From the NCBI GenBank assembly GCA_963840455.1, contig CAWIYV010000014.1, positions 416,001-480,000 on the forward strand: 64,000 bases of DNA, in the 5' to 3' direction. A program made the translations under genes and the position numbers. This document shows, one piece after another, positions 16,483 to 28,905 of this stretch. Under the pieces are notes generated by a model. That model did no database searches and had not been told where the DNA came from. It saw only the letters and a list, made by a program, of their open reading frames with translations. The first letter of the stretch is position 1. Each line of letters starts with the position of its first letter. This DNA comes from Nitrospirota bacterium. Its GTDB lineage: Bacteria > Nitrospirota > UBA9217.

Positions 16483-18390
16483 ATGGCCATCGGCACGCTC
16501 TGGAAATTTTTCGGCAACCGCCGCGGGATGATCATCCTTCTCATCCAGCTCGCCCTCCTGCTTACCTTCCTTCATTATTTTAGCGGCTATCAATCGAGCG
16601 ATAGATGTGCAGCCTGCCACGCGGACAAGGAGCGCATGACGAAACTGGGCTATCCTCAGTTCGTGATGACGCGCGAGCAGGTCCAGAAGGAATCGCGCCA
16701 CCCGAACACCGAATGCCGCGACTGTCACCTGGGCAACGGCCTCTCCGACGACCCTGACAAAGCGCACAAGGGGATGCTGAAGCTCATTGTGCTGGACAAT
16801 GACCTGAACGTCATGCCGCGGAAAGGGCATGTCACGCGGCTCCTCCCGTCAGGCAGCGACCGCCAGCGGAACATGCTGCCCCGCCTGGCTGACGGCGAGC
16901 TCGATTACGACGTGGGTACGCTCATGTGGCACGACCGAGATCCTGTCACCCTCGGCTACGACCCGAAGATCGCAGAGAGGACCTGCGGCAAGGCTGCCTG
17001 CCATCCCGACCAGGTGAAGCAGTTCTCCACGAGCAACATGGGATCGAACTTCCGGCAGCGGTCCATGCGGACGTGGAACGACATCCACGGCCCGAACAAT
17101 TGAGGCCCCTCCTTTGCGGACACCCTGCCGGTCGGCAGGGCGGAAGGCGACAAGTTCTCCTTCGATAACACCAGCAAGATCATGGAAGAGATCAACTACC
17201 CGCTGTCGCGTGAGCAGGCGGTGGCAAAGCAGAAGGCCTGCAACATCTGCCACACCGGCTGCCTCGACTGCCACTACACGCCGACAAAGGAGCGGGGCTC
17301 CCATGCCATGAGCCGCATCCCCCCTGCGCTGAACTGCACCGGGAACGGCAGGAGCACCTTCGTCTGCCATGCGGGCACCATGGAGCGCAGGCGCGGCGAC
17401 AGCTATCTGGGCAATGACTTCTCCGAGCCGGCCGGGCTTCCCGAGGACGTGCACGTGAAGCAAAAGATGGAATGCGTTGACTGCCACCAGACCGGACCGG
17501 GCGGTATGGGCCACATCGAACGTCGCGCCACCTGCCAGGATTGCCATCCCGAGGTCGAACAGGCCATGGCGCGGAGCATGCACAGGAACGTGGCCTGCGA
17601 GTCCTGCCACGTGAAGATCCTCGGCGGCTACGAGATGACCTCCTGGGGACCGGGCATGGTGCTGTCCCGGCCGAACCCCTTCAAGAAGTATTCATTATAT
17701 TACGGCCCCCAGGCGCCACCGATCCTCATCAAGGACCAGAAGGGCATCTGGATCCCGACCAAGATCTGGCCGAACAGTATGGGCGGCTTCAAAAATAGGG
17801 TCCAGCCGAAACCGGGCCTCGTGTTCCGGTGGCCTGACGGCCAGACGCGGGACGCCTACGCCCAGCTCGGGACCTTCAGCGTTCCCGGCGGGAACAACAA
17901 CTACCTCGCCTGGATCCAGGTGGAGCAGGTGGCCCATCCGCTCGGGAAATCCCGCACCTGCGGGAGCTGCCACGACGGCGCGGCGCAGACCGCGAAGGTG
18001 GCGTGGAGGTTCTTCGACACTCAGGGCGCGGAGCCTTTCACGGGCAGCCAGAAGGTGGTGGCGGACAGGAACGGGCTCCAGGTAAAGGACATCAAGGCCA
18101 CGTCGTCGATCACGCTCATGGAAGGCGGAAAGATCGAGAACTTCGCGGCATGGATGAAGCTCGGTGATATCTGGAAAACGAGCGGGGATTTCTCGATCCC
18201 CAAGTCGGATCCCGTGAAGTATCGGAAGCTGGAGGCCGGCATCCGCGATGCCATGAGGAAGCTCGATGCGGAGGACCGCGAGCTCAAGCGTCGCGAGGCG
18301 AATGGCGATGATATGAAGAAGCTGCGGCGCAGGTGGAAAGAGGCGAAGGCTGCTGCGGTGCATGAGGCCGGTCAGGTGGTGTTCCCGTGA
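16483..18390 (+). CDS. Membrane-anchored multiheme cytochrome c, probable selenoprotein (UGA at 17101-17103 read as Sec; 635 aa)
   Basis: ORFs 16483-17103 and 17182-18390 share a frame, separated only by TGA (HGPNN-U-GPSFAD); 8 CxxCH plus CX4CH and CX9CH motifs; SECIS-like hairpin follows the TGA. Confidence 0.85.
17104..17147 (+). promoter_or_regulatory. Bacterial SECIS element
   Basis: Stem ccctgcc(17123-29)/ggcaggg(17134-40), apical loop GGTC starting 26 nt after UGA, lower stem cctttgcg/cggaagg. Confidence 0.8.
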
Positions 18391-18547: not shown

Positions 18548-19159
18548 ATGAACACCCTCATCAAGACCATCGAGGTCATCGGCATCTTTGCCTTCGCGAT
18601 CTCGGGCATCATCGAGGCGCGCAAGAAGGGCATGGACATCGTGGGCATCTATGTCGTCGGGATGGTCACGGCCTTCGGCGGCGGCTCGCTCCGTGACCTG
18701 GTCCTGAACCGCCATCCGCTCTTCTGGGTGGAGCACTACTGGTATCCCGTCATCCTGCTGTTCCTCTCCGCGCTTGCCAGCGCGATCGTGCGGCACGTGA
18801 CCGAGCACACGCGGTCCATGACCGTGGTCCAAGTGCTCGACGCGTTGGGCCTGGGGCTTTTCGCCGCCTCCGGTGCGTCGGTGGCCCATCAGGCCGGAAC
18901 CAACCCCTTCATTTCCTCGCTCATCGGGGTCATGACAGGCGTGTTCGGCGGCGTGTTCCGGGACATCATCTGCAACGAGATCCCCTATGTGTTCCAGCGC
19001 ACGGAGCTCTATGCGACCTGCGCGTTCGCGGGGGCGTGGTCCTATCTGCTGGTCATCGGCGCGGGGGGCGACGAGCTTACGGCCGTGATGAGCTGCATCA
19101 CCATCACCTTCGTGTTGCGGATTCTGGCGATACGGTATAAGATCAGGCTGCCGGTATAG
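18548..19159 (+). CDS. TRIC / UPF0126 (YadS-like) membrane protein
   Basis: Duplicated halves: FAISG..MD..G....VTAFGGGSLRD and DALGLGLF..TGVFGGVFRD. Confidence 0.9.
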   Translation: MNTLIKTIEVIGIFAFAISGIIEARKKGMDIVGIYVVGMVTAFGGGSLRDLVLNRHPLFWVEHYWYPVILLFLSALASAIVRHVTEHTRSMTVVQVLDALGLGLFAASGASVAHQAGTNPFISSLIGVMTGVFGGVFRDIICNEIPYVFQRTELYATCAFAGAWSYLLVIGAGGDELTAVMSCITITFVLRILAIRYKIRLPV

Positions 19160-20847: not shown

Positions 20848-21117
20848 ATGAACGAGATCTATATCGACATCGGATGGGCAATCGTCTTTACCATGGTGGG
20901 CGGCATCATCGGCATCCTGCTGATCCTCGCCTCGACGCTGCTCATCCCCCGCATCTTGACCAGATTGACCCCGAACCTGAACGAGGACAAGGAGATCGCC
21001 CGGGGCAACCGCGCCGTGGCCGAGTACTTCGGCAGGGTCGTGGGCTCCACCATCATCGCCATCGGTATCGTGATCGCCGCCGCAATCCTCGGCGGGATCA
21101 TCGCGGCACTGTTCTAA
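20848..21117 (+). CDS. DUF350-like small membrane protein
   Basis: CAGGAGG RBS; hydrophobic helices flanking LTP....KEIARGNRAVA, typical of DUF350. Confidence 0.7.
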   Translation: MNEIYIDIGWAIVFTMVGGIIGILLILASTLLIPRILTRLTPNLNEDKEIARGNRAVAEYFGRVVGSTIIAIGIVIAAAILGGIIAALF

Positions 21118-21147
21118 CACCTCTCTCCGGACCCTTCGAGCGCTTCA

Positions 21148-23775
21148 ATGACGACTTTCGTTCAACGGATCATTGTACTATCAGCCTTTGTTCTCGGTTC
21201 CAGTCTGTTCGCCCCGGAGTCGCACGCGAGGGGAGGCGGCGGCTGTGTCGAGCAGGGCACCCATGTCCTCACGCCTTCCGGTCCTGTCCCGATCGAGCGG
21301 TTGAAGACCGGCGATACCGTGCTCGGCGTGGACCGGCAGATGCTCCGTCCCGTTACCGTCCGGTCGCTCATGCAGGTCCGGACGGAAGAATATGTTGAAC
21401 TCTCTGTGAACGGCCGCTTTCTGCGGCTCACCGCTGAACATCCCGTCGAAACAGCTCCGGGTGTCTTTCGGAACGCATCCCGTCTCAGGCAGGGTGATAA
21501 GGTCATCCTCCACGAGGACGGACTCATTGCCGATGCGGCAATAGTATCCATCAGACGCATTCAAAACAGCAAGCCCGCATACAACCTGCTTGTTTCGCCT
21601 GCCGGAACCTACTTGGCAAATACCATCGTGGTCCACAACAAGGGATGCTTCCTTCCCGACACACCGGTCCGGACGGCCGACGGTTCGGAAGTGCCGATCT
21701 CCGGGGTCCGGCAGGGCGACCGGCTGCTCGCGTTCACCGCTGATGGACATGTCGTCGCAGCAACGGTCCGTCAGGTGCTCACCCACGCTGCCGATGAATA
21801 CCGCATCGTACGGACCAGCAGCATGGTCCTGCAGGTCACACCGGAGCATCCTTTCTATGTCGGCGATGGAACATTCAAGACGCTCGAAGCCCTGCAGCCC
21901 GGCGACAGGATCTTTGCCTATGACGGGAGCGGTCTTAATCCTCAACGGATCGAGAGCATCGAGGCCGTGCGCGCTCCGGTCCGTGTCTATAACCTTATGA
22001 CCGACGCACCGCATACCTTCTTTGCGAATGGAATCGCAGTGCATAATAAAGGAGGAGGTGGCGGCTGTTTCCCGCCGGGGACAGAGGTCCTGACACCGCG
22101 AGGCGAGGTCCCGATCGAACATATTGCACCAGGCGAAACGGTCATCACGGTAGATGAGAATGGGCAACAGGTCCCCTCGATGGCGCTGTCAACGCATGCT
22201 GCCCGATCCCGGCTGCTGGTCATACGAACAACGCAGGGCGACCTGACGACGACCTCCGAGCATCCGCTGGCACTTGCGTCAGGAGGATTCCTGCAGGCGG
22301 GCCGGCTGGTCCCGGGCGATGCCGTGCTCGCGTGGAAGGACGGGTATACGAAGGCGCAGGTAACCGGCGTTGAACCGCTCGACGCCGATGCACTGGTATA
22401 TAATCTCACCGTGGACGGTCCGCACACGTTCATCGCCGGAGGGTTCGTCGTCCATAACAAGGGAGGGGGCGGTGGTGGATTCCGCAGCAGCGGCGGACGG
22501 TCCTCCTCGGGCGGCGGGTCCGGCACGGAGGGCGAGGGGCCGTTCATTGCGATGATCGTCCTCGGTGCGGTCATCATCGTCATCATTGCCGTCCGGAAGG
22601 AGAGGTCTGACAACCTTGACCAACTATTCAACAGGGGGGACATCGAGAAGAAGAGCGAAAAGACGGAGAAGCTTCTCGCGTTCATCGCGCAGCAGGACTC
22701 GACCGTCTCGCCCGACGTTCTCAAAAAAACCGTGGAAACCACCTTCCGAAAACTCCAGGAGTGCTGGCAGGCCCGGGAGTACGAGCCCATGAAGCCTCTC
22801 CTGATGCCAGACCTCTATGCCGACCATCTTGGCCAGATCCGCGGCATGGCGCGAAACCACGAGATCAATGTAATCTCCGGCCTGCAGGTCGACGCGGTCG
22901 ACCTGGTGAACGTCAGGTATACGCTCAAAGAGGAGGACCGGGAGTTCACGGCGCTCATCACGGCCACGGCGACGGACTTCTACATCGATGATCGTACGAA
23001 TGAGCGGATTCGCGGCGACCAGGGGGCCGCGCCGTTCCAGGAGTTCTGGACCTTCCAGTATCACCAGGACAAATGGCTCCTGCGGGAGATCGAACAGACC
23101 GCCGAGTCCGACATCCTGAATGACGACAACTTCTTCGAACAGTTCACCGACAAAGGCGTGGAGCAGGTCGAGGGCGCTGCGGCAAAGAAGGAGGGGCCGG
23201 AAGGCCCGTGGCTCGAAGGGGCGGTCATGACCAAGGAGCGCCGCGTCGAGCGGATGCTCAATTTCCTCGTAAAGACCGACAGCATCTGGGACCGGAAGAA
23301 GATGATGCTCACGGGCCGGAGCGTCTTCCTTGCAGTGACCGGGGCGTGGGAGGCAGGCGACCCGAGAGCGGTCCCCGCAGCAGACCTGTTCCCGGAGCTC
23401 GCCCGGGACCTTCACGATGCAATCAGGAAGAACCGGGACAAAGGCATCAGCCTCGAGTTCCGGAATCTTGCTGTTCGGAAGGTGGAACTGGTCCTGGTCA
23501 GGAACTTCGCCGACAACACCCAGGACGAATATATGGCGCGCATCCGTGCCCATGCCCAGAAGATCATGAAAGTGGCGGGCAACGTCGTCCGGCAGGACGA
23601 TGACGTGACGGCCTTCGAACAGTTCCTGACCTTCGGAAGGCTCGACAGCAGATGGAAGCTGAAGGAGGTTGTCCTGCCGCACGAGGCGGAGGGCGTGGTG
23701 GAGCAGGAGAATGTCGATCAGGAAGCATCGAAGCAGCAGGTCGAGTGGTACTACCAGCACACGCGGGCGGTGTGA
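21148..23775 (+). CDS. Exported protein: signal peptide + three tandem Hint (intein-like/BIL) domains + Gly/Ser linker + TM + Tim44-like domains
   Basis: SHA|RGGGG; Hints 21244-21639, 21646-22047, 22066-22458 each C...TxEHP...YNL...VHN; TM FIAMIVLGAVIIVIIAV; FQEFWTF...WLLREIEQ and FEQFLTF...WKLKEV Tim44-like ends. Confidence 0.85.
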   Translation: MTTFVQRIIVLSAFVLGSSLFAPESHARGGGGCVEQGTHVLTPSGPVPIERLKTGDTVLGVDRQMLRPVTVRSLMQVRTEEYVELSVNGRFLRLTAEHPVETAPGVFRNASRLRQGDKVILHEDGLIADAAIVSIRRIQNSKPAYNLLVSPAGTYLANTIVVHNKGCFLPDTPVRTADGSEVPISGVRQGDRLLAFTADGHVVAATVRQVLTHAADEYRIVRTSSMVLQVTPEHPFYVGDGTFKTLEALQPGDRIFAYDGSGLNPQRIESIEAVRAPVRVYNLMTDAPHTFFANGIAVHNKGGGGGCFPPGTEVLTPRGEVPIEHIAPGETVITVDENGQQVPSMALSTHAARSRLLVIRTTQGDLTTTSEHPLALASGGFLQAGRLVPGDAVLAWKDGYTKAQVTGVEPLDADALVYNLTVDGPHTFIAGGFVVHNKGGGGGGFRSSGGRSSSGGGSGTEGEGPFIAMIVLGAVIIVIIAVRKERSDNLDQLFNRGDIEKKSEKTEKLLAFIAQQDSTVSPDVLKKTVETTFRKLQECWQAREYEPMKPLLMPDLYADHLGQIRGMARNHEINVISGLQVDAVDLVNVRYTLKEEDREFTALITATATDFYIDDRTNERIRGDQGAAPFQEFWTFQYHQDKWLLREIEQTAESDILNDDNFFEQFTDKGVEQVEGAAAKKEGPEGPWLEGAVMTKERRVERMLNFLVKTDSIWDRKKMMLTGRSVFLAVTGAWEAGDPRAVPAADLFPELARDLHDAIRKNRDKGISLEFRNLAVRKVELVLVRNFADNTQDEYMARIRAHAQKIMKVAGNVVRQDDDVTAFEQFLTFGRLDSRWKLKEVVLPHEAEGVVEQENVDQEASKQQVEWYYQHTRAV

Positions 23776-24553: not shown

Positions 24554-24748
24554 ATGGCAAATACAACGGCAACGATCCCCTGTCCGGGATGCAGCGGTAA
24601 AGGGTTCATAGTGTGTCCTGTCTGCCGCGGGCAGGGAAGACAGCACAGTAGCAATGCGTCTCAACGTCCTTGCCCGAGCTGCCACGGATCGGGGAAAAAC
24701 GTCTGTCCTCAGTGCCGGGGAGCTAAAAAAGTAATCGGAGAAAAATAA
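24554..24748 (+). CDS. Stand-alone DnaJ-type zinc-finger miniprotein
   Basis: Four CxxCxG(xG) repeats in 64 aa; GAGGGG RBS. Confidence 0.7.
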   Translation: MANTTATIPCPGCSGKGFIVCPVCRGQGRQHSSNASQRPCPSCHGSGKNVCPQCRGAKKVIGEK

Positions 24749-26946: not shown

Positions 26947-28905
26947 TTACCAGGTCCTTGTTCCGTGGCACGATGGAGAGCAGGAGCTCGCGGTCGCGTT
27001 AAAGTTCAAGGAAGCTACGGTGTTTGTAACGCCATTCATGTGCGTCGCAGCAGTCACGGCAGTTGAACTATAGCCAGCGCCGTGGCAGGTGGAGCACTGA
27101 TACCCCCGCGAATTCACGTGGAAATCGTGCTGGCCCGATGCCGGCGGGATGGCGTGGCAGCTGCCACATGCCGGCGTCGGCGGTACATAGGTGCAGGCCT
27201 GCGACAGGACCGGCGTTCCTCCGGTGCAGCCTGCGGGAGACGACGTTGCTACGTTCCTGGTCTGGGTGTTGTTCGACTGGCAAGCTCCCCAGGCCGAGTA
27301 GGTGAACGAGGTGCAGGCCGTGACCGGCGGTACATAGGTGCATGCCTGGGAGAGGACCGGCGTTCCTCCGGTGCAGCCTGCGGGAGACGACGTTGCTACG
27401 TTCCTGGTCTGGGTGTTGTTGGACTGGCAAGCTCCCCACGCCGAGTACGTGAACGAAGTGCAGGCCGTGACCGGCGGTACATAGGTGCATGCCTGGGAGA
27501 GGACCGGCGTTCCTCCGGTGCAGCCTGCGGGAGACGACGTTGCTACGTTCCTGGTCTGGGTATTGTTGGACTGGCAAGCTCCCCAGGCCGCGTACGTGAA
27601 CGAGGTGCAGGCCGTGACCGGCGGTACATAGGTGCATGCCTGGGAGAGGACCGGCGTTCCTCCGGTGCAGCCTGCGGGAGACGACGTTGCTACGTTCCTG
27701 GTCTGGGTATTGTTGGACTGGCAAGCTCCCCAGGCCGCGTACGTGAACGAGGTGCAGGCCGTGACCGGCGGTACATAGGTGCATGCCTGGGAGAGGACCG
27801 GCGTTCCTCCGGTGCAGCCTGCGGGAGACGACGTTGCTACGGTCCTGGTCTGGGTGTTGTTCGACTGGCAAGCTCCCCAGGCCGAGTACGTGAACGAGGT
27901 GCAGGCTGTGACCGGCGGTACATAGGTGCAGGCCCGAGTCAGGGCCGGCGTTCCTGTACAGCCCGCCGGAGATGACGACAGAAGGTCCCTGAGCTGCGTT
28001 CCGGTTGACTGGCATGCGCCCCACGCGCCATAGGTGTAGGTGCAGGCCGTTGGAGTCGGCGGTGTGCAGGCCTGTGACAGGATAGGCGTTCCCGTGCATC
28101 CTGCGGGAGACGAGGTCAGGAGGTTCCTGGTCTGCGTTCCGTTTGACTGGCATGCGCCCCACGCGTCATAGGTGTAGGTGCAGGACGTCGAACCTCCCGG
28201 CCCGGCAGGCATATTCTCCGGATAGAAGGTCCCCGCGGAGATATCCCTGAGGGATCCTGAAAAGATAACGCCGCCGGTCAGCCTGTTCTTAACGACTACT
28301 TTCCCGTCCTCAACTATAAACCGCACGTCGCGGAACAGTGCACGAAGGCCGCTGGAATCACTGTCGTCATCGTCATCGTCGGAGACTGCGTTCCCGGAAA
28401 TCTGGTACAGCGCAAACAGAGGCGCCAGCACGGTGCGCAGGCGGTAGATGATCCCTTCGAAATCGTCCGTGCTCCTGCGGTAATGATCGTCACTGGACTG
28501 CATGGTGTAGAGCGCGCTCGAATTCGTATCATTCGCTGAAGCGGCCACTGCCGTGTCCGAAAGCGGGTTGATGTTGGCACGGCCTCCGCTTTTCGAAATA
28601 GAGTACAGGGTCTGGTCAGTCCCTTCGGCCTTGAGAACGAAAGGCGGCTTGAGCCCCCTCACGTCAACAGTGTAAACTCCGTTGCTGTTGCTGTCTGCCG
28701 TTTTTTCCTGAACCGGCATCGAAGAATCCCTCACAGAAATAGTACTGGTACCTGCCGTGTCCAGCGATGCGACACCGAATACCGAAGACTTAGAGGTATT
28801 AGACACGGTCGGCGAATCCTTCGAACCAGCGCTGCAGCCGTTCACGATCAAGGCGAAGATCATCAGAAATACCGGGGACAGATTCGTGATCCATTTTTTC
28901 ATCAT
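26947..28905 (-). CDS. Putative lipoprotein cytochrome c with seven thrombospondin type 1-like repeats and a C-terminal triheme domain
   Basis: Lipobox-like LIVNG|C; repeats C..TY.AWGACQ...TQTR......PAGC; C-terminal CGSCH, CSTCH, CSPSCH; AAGGAG RBS. Confidence 0.8.
   Translation of the reverse strand: MMKKWITNLSPVFLMIFALIVNGCSAGSKDSPTVSNTSKSSVFGVASLDTAGTSTISVRDSSMPVQEKTADSNSNGVYTVDVRGLKPPFVLKAEGTDQTLYSISKSGGRANINPLSDTAVAASANDTNSSALYTMQSSDDHYRRSTDDFEGIIYRLRTVLAPLFALYQISGNAVSDDDDDDSDSSGLRALFRDVRFIVEDGKVVVKNRLTGGVIFSGSLRDISAGTFYPENMPAGPGGSTSCTYTYDAWGACQSNGTQTRNLLTSSPAGCTGTPILSQACTPPTPTACTYTYGAWGACQSTGTQLRDLLSSSPAGCTGTPALTRACTYVPPVTACTSFTYSAWGACQSNNTQTRTVATSSPAGCTGGTPVLSQACTYVPPVTACTSFTYAAWGACQSNNTQTRNVATSSPAGCTGGTPVLSQACTYVPPVTACTSFTYAAWGACQSNNTQTRNVATSSPAGCTGGTPVLSQACTYVPPVTACTSFTYSAWGACQSNNTQTRNVATSSPAGCTGGTPVLSQACTYVPPVTACTSFTYSAWGACQSNNTQTRNVATSSPAGCTGGTPVLSQACTYVPPTPACGSCHAIPPASGQHDFHVNSRGYQCSTCHGAGYSSTAVTAATHMNGVTNTVASLNFNATASSCSPSCHGTRTW
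27183..28185 (-). repeat. 147-bp (49-aa) coding tandem repeat: five near-identical plus two diverged units
   Basis: gtacataggt recurs at 27183, 27330, 27477, 27624, 27771, 27918. Confidence 0.95.

Follow-up and report, generated by a model that had tools for sequence, protein, structure and literature searches.

Type A bacterial intein-like (BIL) domains are defined, in excerpts of the reviews drawn on here, by a cysteine as first residue (Cys1), a C-terminal His-Asn and the absence of a nucleophile at position +1. The same excerpts describe their products as mainly cleaved, with splicing a minor outcome that proceeds by thioester formation, Asn cyclisation and attack of the freed amino group on the thioester, and they place the known BILs in hypervariable regions of non-conserved proteins (PMC7664689, PMC4031507, PMC7765530, PMC3482391 and 10.1101/2020.09.24.301986, also the sources of our background on DUF350). 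For BIL2 of Tetrahymena, one paper reports splicing through an isopeptide at a Lys epsilon-amine and conjugation to other proteins (PMC8616854). Here we describe a two-gene locus of a Nitrospirota bacterium in which a small DUF350-family gene precedes a gene for a predicted exported membrane protein, with three tandem Hint domains lodged in a Gly-rich tail in front of two Tim44-like domains; by their defining residues these Hints are type A BIL-like. The locus lies in a stretch of 64,000 nucleotides, hereafter the window (GenBank assembly GCA_963840455.1, contig CAWIYV010000014.1, positions 416,001 to 480,000 of the forward strand).

The array resembles several described systems without coinciding with any of them. 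With the Clostridium thermocellum BIL of PDB entry 2LWY it shares Cys1, the block B T-x-x-H, a His-Asn end and a +1 residue other than Cys, Ser or Thr. In contrast to known BILs, the Hints of the window family share a single insertion site in a conserved protein, where one to six of them form an ordered tandem array, with an invariant Gly at -1, Lys-Gly at +1 and +2, and linkers of just 2-8 residues. BIL2 of Tetrahymena thermophila BUBL1 (PDB 6Y75, 6TMM), the top structural match, is likewise a Hint between small units that end in Gly, and the joining of Gly to a Lys epsilon-amine reported for it is a precedent for a Lys-dependent outcome. However, BUBL1 is eukaryotic and cytoplasmic and has folded ubiquitin-like flanks, whereas the window Hints have Gly/Lys flanks of 2-6 residues in a predicted exported bacterial tail. 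Class 1 mini-inteins share the fold, blocks A, B, F and G and a host sequence that is uninterrupted in relatives, but the window Hints have Lys at +1, occupy a low-complexity tail instead of a conserved active site, stand in tandem and lack an endonuclease. The Hedgehog Hog/Hint domain has the same G↓CF start (the arrow marks a junction or cleavage site throughout) and forms a Gly thioester on an exported protein, with sequence and fold matches to 1AT0; unlike it, the window Hints have a terminal His-Asn and an N-terminal 'cargo' of a few residues, and no sterol-recognition region.

Beyond the Hints, Hint-less bacterial Tim44-like proteins such as those of loci L094 and L095 share the A↓R(A/G)GGGG...RSSGG tail, the transmembrane (TM) segment and a Tim44-like domain, but differ in having just one Tim44 domain, in lacking Hints and in the absence of a DUF350 gene within about 1.1 kb upstream. 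The small partner matches the DUF350/YjfL family in Pfam above the cut-off, although it represents a half-size subfamily (89 amino acids (aa), two TM segments) dedicated to the Hint-Tim44 gene. Our search of the literature available to us on BILs, Hints and inteins, Tim44, DUF350 and tandem arrays found no description of this architecture, and we therefore regard the conserved tandem setting of these type A BIL-like Hints as new.

Anatomy of the two genes

An open reading frame (ORF) listing of the window places the 875-aa ORF at 21148-23775 (+), 30 nt 3' of the small DUF350 ORF. The features are as follows, in window coordinates.

20848..21117 (+): DUF350-family gene, 89 aa (Pfam PF03994, E 5.1e-7; two TM segments predicted from hydropathy)
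21148..23775 (+): precursor gene, 875 aa, with signal peptide, triple Hint array in a Gly-rich tail, TM segment and two Tim44-like domains
21148..21228 (+): predicted Sec signal peptide, aa 1-27, ending SHA↓R (N-terminal hydrophobic segment; putative cleavage site)
21229..21243 (+): N-extein RGGGG, aa 28-32 (located by junction script)
21244..21639 (+): Hint 1, type A, aa 33-164 (132 aa), with Cys1, TAEHP, YNL and VHN
21640..21645 (+): linker Lys-Gly between Hints 1 and 2, aa 165-166
21646..22047 (+): Hint 2, type B, aa 167-300 (134 aa), with Cys1, TPEHP, YNL and VHN
22048..22065 (+): linker KGGGGG between Hints 2 and 3, aa 301-306
22066..22458 (+): Hint 3, type C, aa 307-437 (131 aa), with Cys1, TSEHP, YNL and VHN
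22459..22539 (+): Gly/Ser/Arg-rich tail KGGGGGGFRSSGGRSSSGGGSGTEGEG, aa 438-464, predicted disordered (predicted local distance difference test, pLDDT, <50 at 438-465)
22540..22608 (+): transmembrane helix, aa ~465-487, followed by RKERSD in a positive-inside pattern (hydropathy peak 460-487; model helix 465-482)
22633..23112 (+): Tim44-like domain 1, aa ~496-655, predicted cytoplasmic (PF04280 best stretch 510-650; alpha+beta in the model)
23233..23757 (+): Tim44-like domain 2, aa ~696-870 (PF04280 second stretch; boundaries from the model)

By script, the signal peptide ends in ...ESHA, residues C33, C167 and C307 open the three Hints, each preceded by Gly, and all three carry T-x-E-H-P and Y-N-L, end in H-N and are followed by K-G; none contains an insert of endonuclease size. 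Hint 3 is followed by KGGGGGGFRSSGGRSSSGGGSG, the hydrophobic segment and RKERSD. In Pfam the 875-aa protein matches PT-HINT (E 9.8e-31, 107 bits against a cut-off of 27.7), Hint_2 (E 9.2e-24, 84.9 bits) and Hint (E 1.3e-20, 74.4 bits) in three stretches each, and Tim44 PF04280 (E 3.6e-19, 69.8 bits, cut-off 29.6) in two. NCBIfam models of the intein N- and C-terminal splicing regions match three stretches each, whereas no family-level NCBIfam model was matched, and the Tim44/TimA adaptor subfamily NF033779 scored 32.6 bits, under its cut-off of 80. In the genome that contains the window, Hint matches are confined to this ORF.

The AlphaFold2 model (mean pLDDT 78.7, predicted template modelling score 0.43, from a 25-row alignment) has three confident beta-rich domains (pLDDT ~80-90), the helix 465-482 and, in the C-terminal half, two confident alpha+beta domains, with disordered linkers at 19-31, 301-306 and 438-465; the listed Foldseek matches of the full protein all fall on the Hint part. 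They are led by Tetrahymena BIL2 (E 2e-10), mini-inteins, 2LWY (32% identity, template modelling score 0.86) and Hedgehog, with target scores of 0.76-0.86. An earlier sequence-only reading of the window had proposed the order signal peptide-RGGGG-Hint-KG-Hint-KGGGGG-Hint-TM-two Tim44 domains, which proved correct in each detail checked by script, Pfam and AlphaFold2; the searches it suggested with Hint, PT-HINT, Tim44 and DUF350 profiles each gave matches, the first three in 3, 3 and 2 stretches. Its placement of the Hints outside the membrane agrees with their position between the signal peptide and the sole TM segment, from which export is predicted on the basis of hydropathy and the positive-inside pattern.

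The profiles, the predicted fold and the N-terminal Cys with the block B Thr-x-x-His place all three domains in the HINT superfamily. As that reading had also proposed, they are type A BIL-like by Cys1, the C-terminal His-Asn and the lack of a +1 nucleophile; in addition, their closest sequence relatives are known BILs, 2LWY being the best PDB sequence match (E 9.5e-12, aligned to Hint 3), followed by Tetrahymena BUBL1 BIL2 (PDB 6TMM, aligned to Hint 2). The label 'poly-intein' proved wrong in the strict sense because the Cys, Ser or Thr that defines canonical class 1 inteins at +1 is absent: Lys occupies this position in all three window Hints and in 267/267 homolog Hints. A trait of canonical inteins, a host sequence found uninterrupted elsewhere, is present (P0370, P0362, P0354, P0373, L094 and L095, discussed below). 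The array also departs from two descriptions of BIL-like domains. It does not lie in a hypervariable region of a non-conserved protein, but at a fixed site after RGGGG in a host 45-60% identical across phyla, and in place of the ubiquitin-like domains that separate BUBL-type Hints there are the linkers KG and KGGGGG, with Lys plus 1-7 Gly/Ser in homologs.

The three window Hints are 31%, 38% and 38% identical to one another in protein sequence and so are not recent duplicates. Their DNA identities of 63-73%, obtained with a gap-tolerant global alignment of GC-rich sequence, are given no weight. Direct repeats at the HN↓KG junctions are short (at most 20 nt, 70-90% identical).

A conserved family with an ordered Hint array

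A search with the Tim44 half against 5.8 billion proteins (lengths 481-1532 aa) gave 921 matches among 8000 scored candidates, and each of the best 120 of these 921 longer homologs carries at least one Hint domain. Where the sequence-only reading saw a singular protein, there is a large family with one to six Hints, whose members are sometimes Hint-less. That the layout recurs in hundreds of homologs puts the architecture far beyond chance. An exhaustive HMMER search of 1.84 billion representatives returned 212 proteins at E <=1e-30, with the junctions retained in representatives that are only 36-55% identical, and with rare Ser1 variants. The names attached to the matches at their sources are limited to 'polymorphic toxin-type HINT domain-containing protein', 'TIM44-like domain-containing protein' and COG labels of the Tim44/YgcG type.

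Junctions were counted in the 103 of the best 120 homologs with clean, complete Hints. All 267 Hints begin with Cys and end in His-Asn followed by Lys-Gly, and Gly precedes the Cys in 266 of them; conservation of HN↓KG, a check that the sequence-only reading had called for, is thus complete in this set, with catalytic residues and +1 Lys kept. The N-extein is [A/G]↓RGGGG in 99 of the 103 proteins. Among 164 linkers, KG occurs 100 times, KGGG 34, KGGGGG 17, KGGGG 6, KGG 5, and KGGS and KGGGGGGG once each.

The order of the domains within the array is also conserved. Raw Hint counts per homolog include a few domains split in two by the profile search, which were cleaned for a census of 152 proteins with complete arrays, their Hints being classed as A, B or C by first-, second- and third-position profiles. 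Each protein has one to six Hints. The commonest patterns are ABC (57 proteins) and AB (48), followed by B (11), ABCC (7), ABB (6), C (5), ABAB and BC (4 each) and AC (2), and eight other patterns, among them ABABAB, were found once each. Of the zero to three Hints at the Gly-rich site for which the sequence-only reading had suggested a census, all numbers exist among the members, and the range reaches six. The linker from A to B is KG in 125/131 junctions. Because the types were seeded by position in three-Hint proteins, they are partly circular, and an unsupervised tree of 385 Hints served as an independent check: a single clade of 123 (support 0.92) takes in 117 of the 135 Hints at first position, and a clade of 150 (support 0.63) takes in 124 of the 135 at second position. 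Together with their mutual identity of 31-38%, these position-specific clades support the suggestion that the Hints are old copies.

Hint B is conserved across phyla about as well as the Tim44 part (for example 63% against 61% to P0041), and Hints A and C somewhat less. The ratio of nonsynonymous to synonymous substitution rates to the closest genomic homolog is 0.28 for Hint 1, 0.13 for Hint 2, 0.32 for Hint 3, 0.11 for the Tim44 part and 0.74 for the tail plus TM segment; these values come from a single pair, because L085 and L044 are identical in sequence. In this pair purifying selection acts over the entire Hints. Copy number varies among close relatives, with two, three or four Hints in proteins at least 85% identical in the Tim44 part. 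Among the contigs that cover the locus in four DNA runs from four studies, none joins across a Hint unit; the contig joints seen lie in the Tim44 part, have short sides of low similarity and probably derive from other organisms. A look for RNA runs that contain the locus found none.

The product of the DUF350 gene matches PF03994 over the second half of the profile (30.2 bits, cut-off 26) and combines the two predicted TM segments with a conserved loop, TPxxDExKEIxRGNxAVxxY, that is invariant in a 33-row alignment with 70% mean column identity. At evaluable loci, the rest being cut by contig ends or lacking a visible N-terminus, a DUF350-like gene lies at most 800 nt upstream on the same strand in 69/70 genome and 58/58 metagenome loci, that is 127/128, so that the claimed partnership is genuine. 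DUF350 and Hint-Tim44 form a widespread, unnamed two-gene module. For the pair of proteins, a complex prediction with residues 455-875 gave an ipSAE of 0.00, which counts neither for nor against a contact.

In a pattern scan of one genome per species, a relative is encoded in 322 species genomes from more than 10 phyla. The best 80 of these belong to Nitrospirota, Planctomycetota, Lentisphaerota, Verrucomicrobiota, Desulfobacterota, Gammaproteobacteria (including one cultured Legionella species), Elusimicrobiota, Acidobacteriota, Kiritimatiellota and others. Within the phylum of the window the distribution is patchy: 21 of 301 genomes match at E <=1e-10, about 10 of them with a full gene, mostly in two genera.

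Hint-less relatives reveal what the array interrupts. P0370 has a signal peptide, YA↓RGGGGGGTGGGGGGGFGGGYSG..., a TM segment and Tim44 domains; P0354, P0362 and P0373 start A↓RGG and continue into Gly/Ser-rich tails, and A-R-G is invariant in four Hint-less relatives. In the window's phylum, the distant, single-Tim44 proteins of L094 and L095 read ACA↓RAGGGGRSSGGSRSS, also given as ACA↓RAGGGGRSSGGSRSSASSSSGSRGSR; no DUF350 gene lies within about 1.1 kb upstream of either. These six examples bear out the claim that Tim44-type proteins with a Gly-rich start after the signal peptide exist. With the Hints taken out (^), the window protein reads HA↓RGGGG^KG^KGGGGG^KGGGGGGFRSSGGRSSSGGGSG, and the composition of its tail KGGGGGGFRSSGGRSSSGGGSGTEGEG matches that of the Hint-less tails. 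Hint-less P0362, which starts A↓RGGLLSSDSGSSGSYSG, can be compared with two-Hint P0284, 58% identical over 379 aa, whose flanks without the Hints read A↓RGGG^KG^KGGGGGFSGGHYYHSSS. Because the 'A↓RGGGG...RSSGG' tail is uninterrupted in Hint-less relatives, the Hints appear to be placed like inteins: the array sits, as far as sequence can tell, inside an ancestral exported Gly/Ser/Arg tail, directly after the conserved mature N-terminus. The Lys-Gly arrives as part of the Hint unit. Architecture, conservation, synteny, purifying selection and extein continuity are established for the module.

Most short proteins that begin with the TM segment are truncated gene calls, many starting inside VHNKGGG or inside the TM segment; some of them (P0236, P0311, P0367 and others) may be either real Hint losses or broken gene calls. 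No precise Hint-less allele was found among the 120 closest shorter matches. In the order of genome G301, P0236-like loci were matched in 3/251 genomes and were Hint-bearing in all three, and complete loci from a metagenome scan seeded with the Hint-less proteins were all Hint-bearing.

Some variants depart from the common plan. In the window's phylum, the gene of L092 (genome G087) is broken by an in-frame TGA, with its pieces in different frames, and that of L093 (genome G046) falls into two ORFs that overlap; either case may reflect a pseudogene or an error of assembly. In P0253, P0256, P0273 and P0276 the Gly tail is separated from the TM segment by ~100-150 aa of additional, Cys-rich sequence. 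In P0356 and P0378 a three-Hint array with KG/KGGGG linkers and a Gly/Ser tail is fused to an unrelated protein that contains a Ser/Lys-rich spacer, an unnamed conserved domain and a TM segment at the C-terminus; there is no Tim44 domain in these two, and no visible signal peptide. P0331 and P0383 carry long Hint arrays with linkers of 1-3 residues (K, KC, RC, R, KGG, KGA) and Pro/Gly/Cys-rich C-terminal tails, again without Tim44. Tandem Hints with a basic +1 residue, which can be Arg in these two arrays, therefore exist outside the Tim44 family.

Possible fates of the Hint array

The invariant catalytic residues, the published BIL chemistry and the continuity of the exteins lead us to favour self-excision of the Hints in the BIL manner, with the flanks re-ligated by amine attack, in a two-gene membrane module; we put the chances of this at about even. 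The module would pair the small DUF350 protein and its two TM segments with a bitopic protein whose two Tim44-like domains lie in the cytoplasm and whose N-terminal tail, rich in Gly, Ser and Arg, is exported, the type A BIL-like array being lodged in this ancestral tail right after the mature N-terminus RGGGG. Export and then removal of the signal peptide would precede Hint processing. At the Gly-Cys bond in front of each Hint a thioester would form through Cys1, cyclisation of the terminal Asn would sever the Asn-Lys bond, and the freed amine of the +1 Lys would attack the Gly thioester, rejoining the flanks. The output would be three free Hints of ~14-15 kDa each and a mature tail RGGGG-KG-KGGGGG-KGGGGGGFRSSGG..., resembling the uninterrupted tails of Hint-less relatives. 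RGGGG would be conserved in 99/103 homologs because it remains on the product. The suggestion of the sequence-only reading that the Hints splice out to rebuild a Gly/Lys-rich N-terminus thus finds support in the uninterrupted A↓RGG...Gly/Ser tails. Catalysis on this scheme would favour ligation over cleavage, and its physiological role might be, for instance, delayed or condition-dependent maturation.

Several points weigh against this proposal. In the review excerpts, BIL products are dominated by cleavage. The alpha-amine route needs no Lys, so that the invariant +1 Lys goes unexplained. Plain splicing merely recreates a tail that could be encoded directly, and an added function is suggested by the order of the A, B and C types, by the constancy of KG as the A-to-B linker and by the fact that nearly all close members keep one Hint or more. 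A periplasmic and possibly oxidising site would be unfavourable for a lone catalytic Cys, and export itself is deduced from hydropathy alone. Moreover, in a tree of the last 400 aa of 14 hand-picked Hint-less and 76 Hint-bearing proteins (one in four of P0001-P0120 kept; a complete N-terminus and a 400-aa C-terminal part required), the Hint-less forms nest within the Hint-bearing ones, P0362 standing beside P0284 with support 1.0, which indicates that the Hints are dispensable for the core function. An earlier tree of the same region with all apparent Hint-less proteins was uninformative.

The nested position of the Hint-less forms would be expected if the Hints were persistent BILs with no adaptive role, inserted in a tolerant low-complexity tail. 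This explanation, which is compatible with splicing, strikes us as possible but doubtful. Activity would be kept since a dead copy cripples the host protein, and recombination at the repeated HNKG/Gly-codon junctions would alter copy number, in line with the short direct repeats there and with the two, three or four Hints of relatives at least 85% identical in the Tim44 part. The occurrence of the array on an unrelated membrane protein (P0356, P0378) and its patchy distribution within the phylum also fit. Yet selfish insertions would hardly be present in 120/120 of the closest longer homologs, keep ordered A, B and C types across phyla, or be constrained like the Tim44 domains, as Hint B is. 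The absence of a homing endonuclease, and of any precise Hint-less allele among the 120 closest shorter matches, likewise tells against them.

Alternatively, the Hints could be self-cutting spacers that release RGGGG, KG, KGGGGG and themselves without any rejoining. The membrane protein would then keep a new N-terminus, NH2-KGGGGGG..., and the array would serve to trim or activate the tail irreversibly, or to set soluble Hints free. The residues for both cleavages are all invariant, and cleaved products predominate for BILs in the review excerpts. However, conservation of RGGGG in 99/103 homologs and of A↓RGG in Hint-less relatives is hard to explain for a discarded peptide, and the tail is uninterrupted in those relatives. 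We consider this outcome unlikely.

The invariant +1 Lys (267/267 Hints) would be accounted for if each Hint were a single-use activator of a C-terminal Gly thioester captured outside the alpha-amine route, an idea that we rate as rather improbable. The captor could be the epsilon-amine of the +1 Lys, giving an isopeptide-branched tail, the freed N-terminus of the linker, giving cyclic KGn or RGGGG, or an amine of the envelope (peptidoglycan, lipid or protein). The precedent is Tetrahymena BIL2, the top structural match, with its reported Lys epsilon-amine isopeptide (PMC8616854). We infer, in addition, that the layout of a C-terminal Asn cut, a short peptide and an N-terminal thioester suits cyclisation, and a copy number of one to six is expected if one Hint equals one 'charge'. 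The built-in ligase with ubiquitin-like transfer that the sequence-only reading had offered as its other option stays a minority reading, with the BIL2 precedent behind it. Against it, Arg, a poor nucleophile, stands at +1 in P0383 and P0331, so that the basic residue may serve another purpose; the occurrence of this tail in Hint-less relatives points to it as the product; and the N-exteins are no more than tiny peptides. The Hints might even, at long odds, be a periplasmic, ATP-free, single-turnover ligation device whose Gly thioester is captured by the +1 Lys or the freed linker end. Equally speculative are its conceivable products, an isopeptide-branched Gly/Lys tail, cyclo(KG), cyclo(KGn) or cyclo(RGGGG), or attachment to an envelope amine, and we would hold with similar reserve that the number of Hints (1-6) sets the ligation events per molecule.

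A polymorphic toxin with a pre-toxin HINT, as implied by the NCBI name of the homologs and by PT-HINT as the best Pfam match, is contradicted by the architecture and highly improbable: a toxin domain is absent, a TM segment and two Tim44 domains come after the Hints, the C-terminal part is conserved and not polymorphic, the downstream gene encodes a nitroreductase and nothing immunity-like, and PADLOC found nothing relevant at the locus, its only match being a weak 'homing endonuclease' match to the Hint end.

Neighbouring genes and significance

LemA is the only other recurrent neighbour of the module. A LemA gene (PF04011) lies just upstream of DUF350 in 29/80 loci (for example L011:5075-5638, E 1.4e-56), and in L033, the sole exception to the DUF350 synteny, it stands directly 5' of the Hint gene; it is absent from the window. 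Conservation with the module does not extend to the remaining neighbours in the window: a DAHP synthase, a downstream nitroreductase, a small zinc-finger protein and an MFS transporter. Excerpts of the literature link DUF350, as a membrane partner, to PspA/polyamine envelope-stress operons, as the sequence-only reading had stated, and contain no other link; no PspA or polyamine genes are adjacent to DUF350 in the window.

Upstream, at 18548-19159 (+) and three genes before the Gly-rich-tail protein, the window encodes a membrane protein with two 'Gly_transporter' (PF03458) repeats, the intervening genes being a tautomerase, the DAHP synthase and DUF350. This proximity is probably a coincidence, because it is not conserved in 80 homolog loci. 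A 402-aa protein at 17182-18390 (+), with many C-x-x-C-H motifs and a weak Cytochrome_C7 match, is a multihaem cytochrome. Downstream of the module, a 64-aa Cys-rich ORF (24554-24748, +) has four C-x-x-C-x-G-x-G-like units and weak DnaJ-type zinc-finger matches below the cut-offs. At 26947-28905 (-) lies a 652-aa secreted-looking protein with ~7 near-identical tandem repeats of ~45 aa (ACTSFTY[SA]AWGACQSNNTQTRNVATSSPAGCTGGTPVLSQACTYVPPVT); its C-terminal part contains C-x-x-C-H heme-type motifs, and it has no Pfam match.

The natural role of BILs has been unclear since they were first described, for they come mostly from variable secreted proteins in which only cleavage could be guessed. The Hint-Tim44 family offers a conserved and easily recognised test case: the site is fixed, the Gly↓Cys and His-Asn↓Lys-Gly junctions are invariant, the domain types come in order, the exteins are just 2-6 residues long, and Hint-less relatives serve as natural controls. 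It also corrects the misleading database name 'polymorphic toxin-type HINT', and the DUF350-Tim44 membrane module gives a handle on two domains of unknown bacterial function. If the Hints splice, theirs would be, to our knowledge, the densest natural array of splicing elements, and a case of amine-mediated splicing in its native context. If the Lys is the nucleophile, this would be bacterial, ATP-free, ubiquitin-like chemistry in the envelope. The family may thus show a new natural use of protein self-splicing chemistry, of interest to intein and BIL biochemists.

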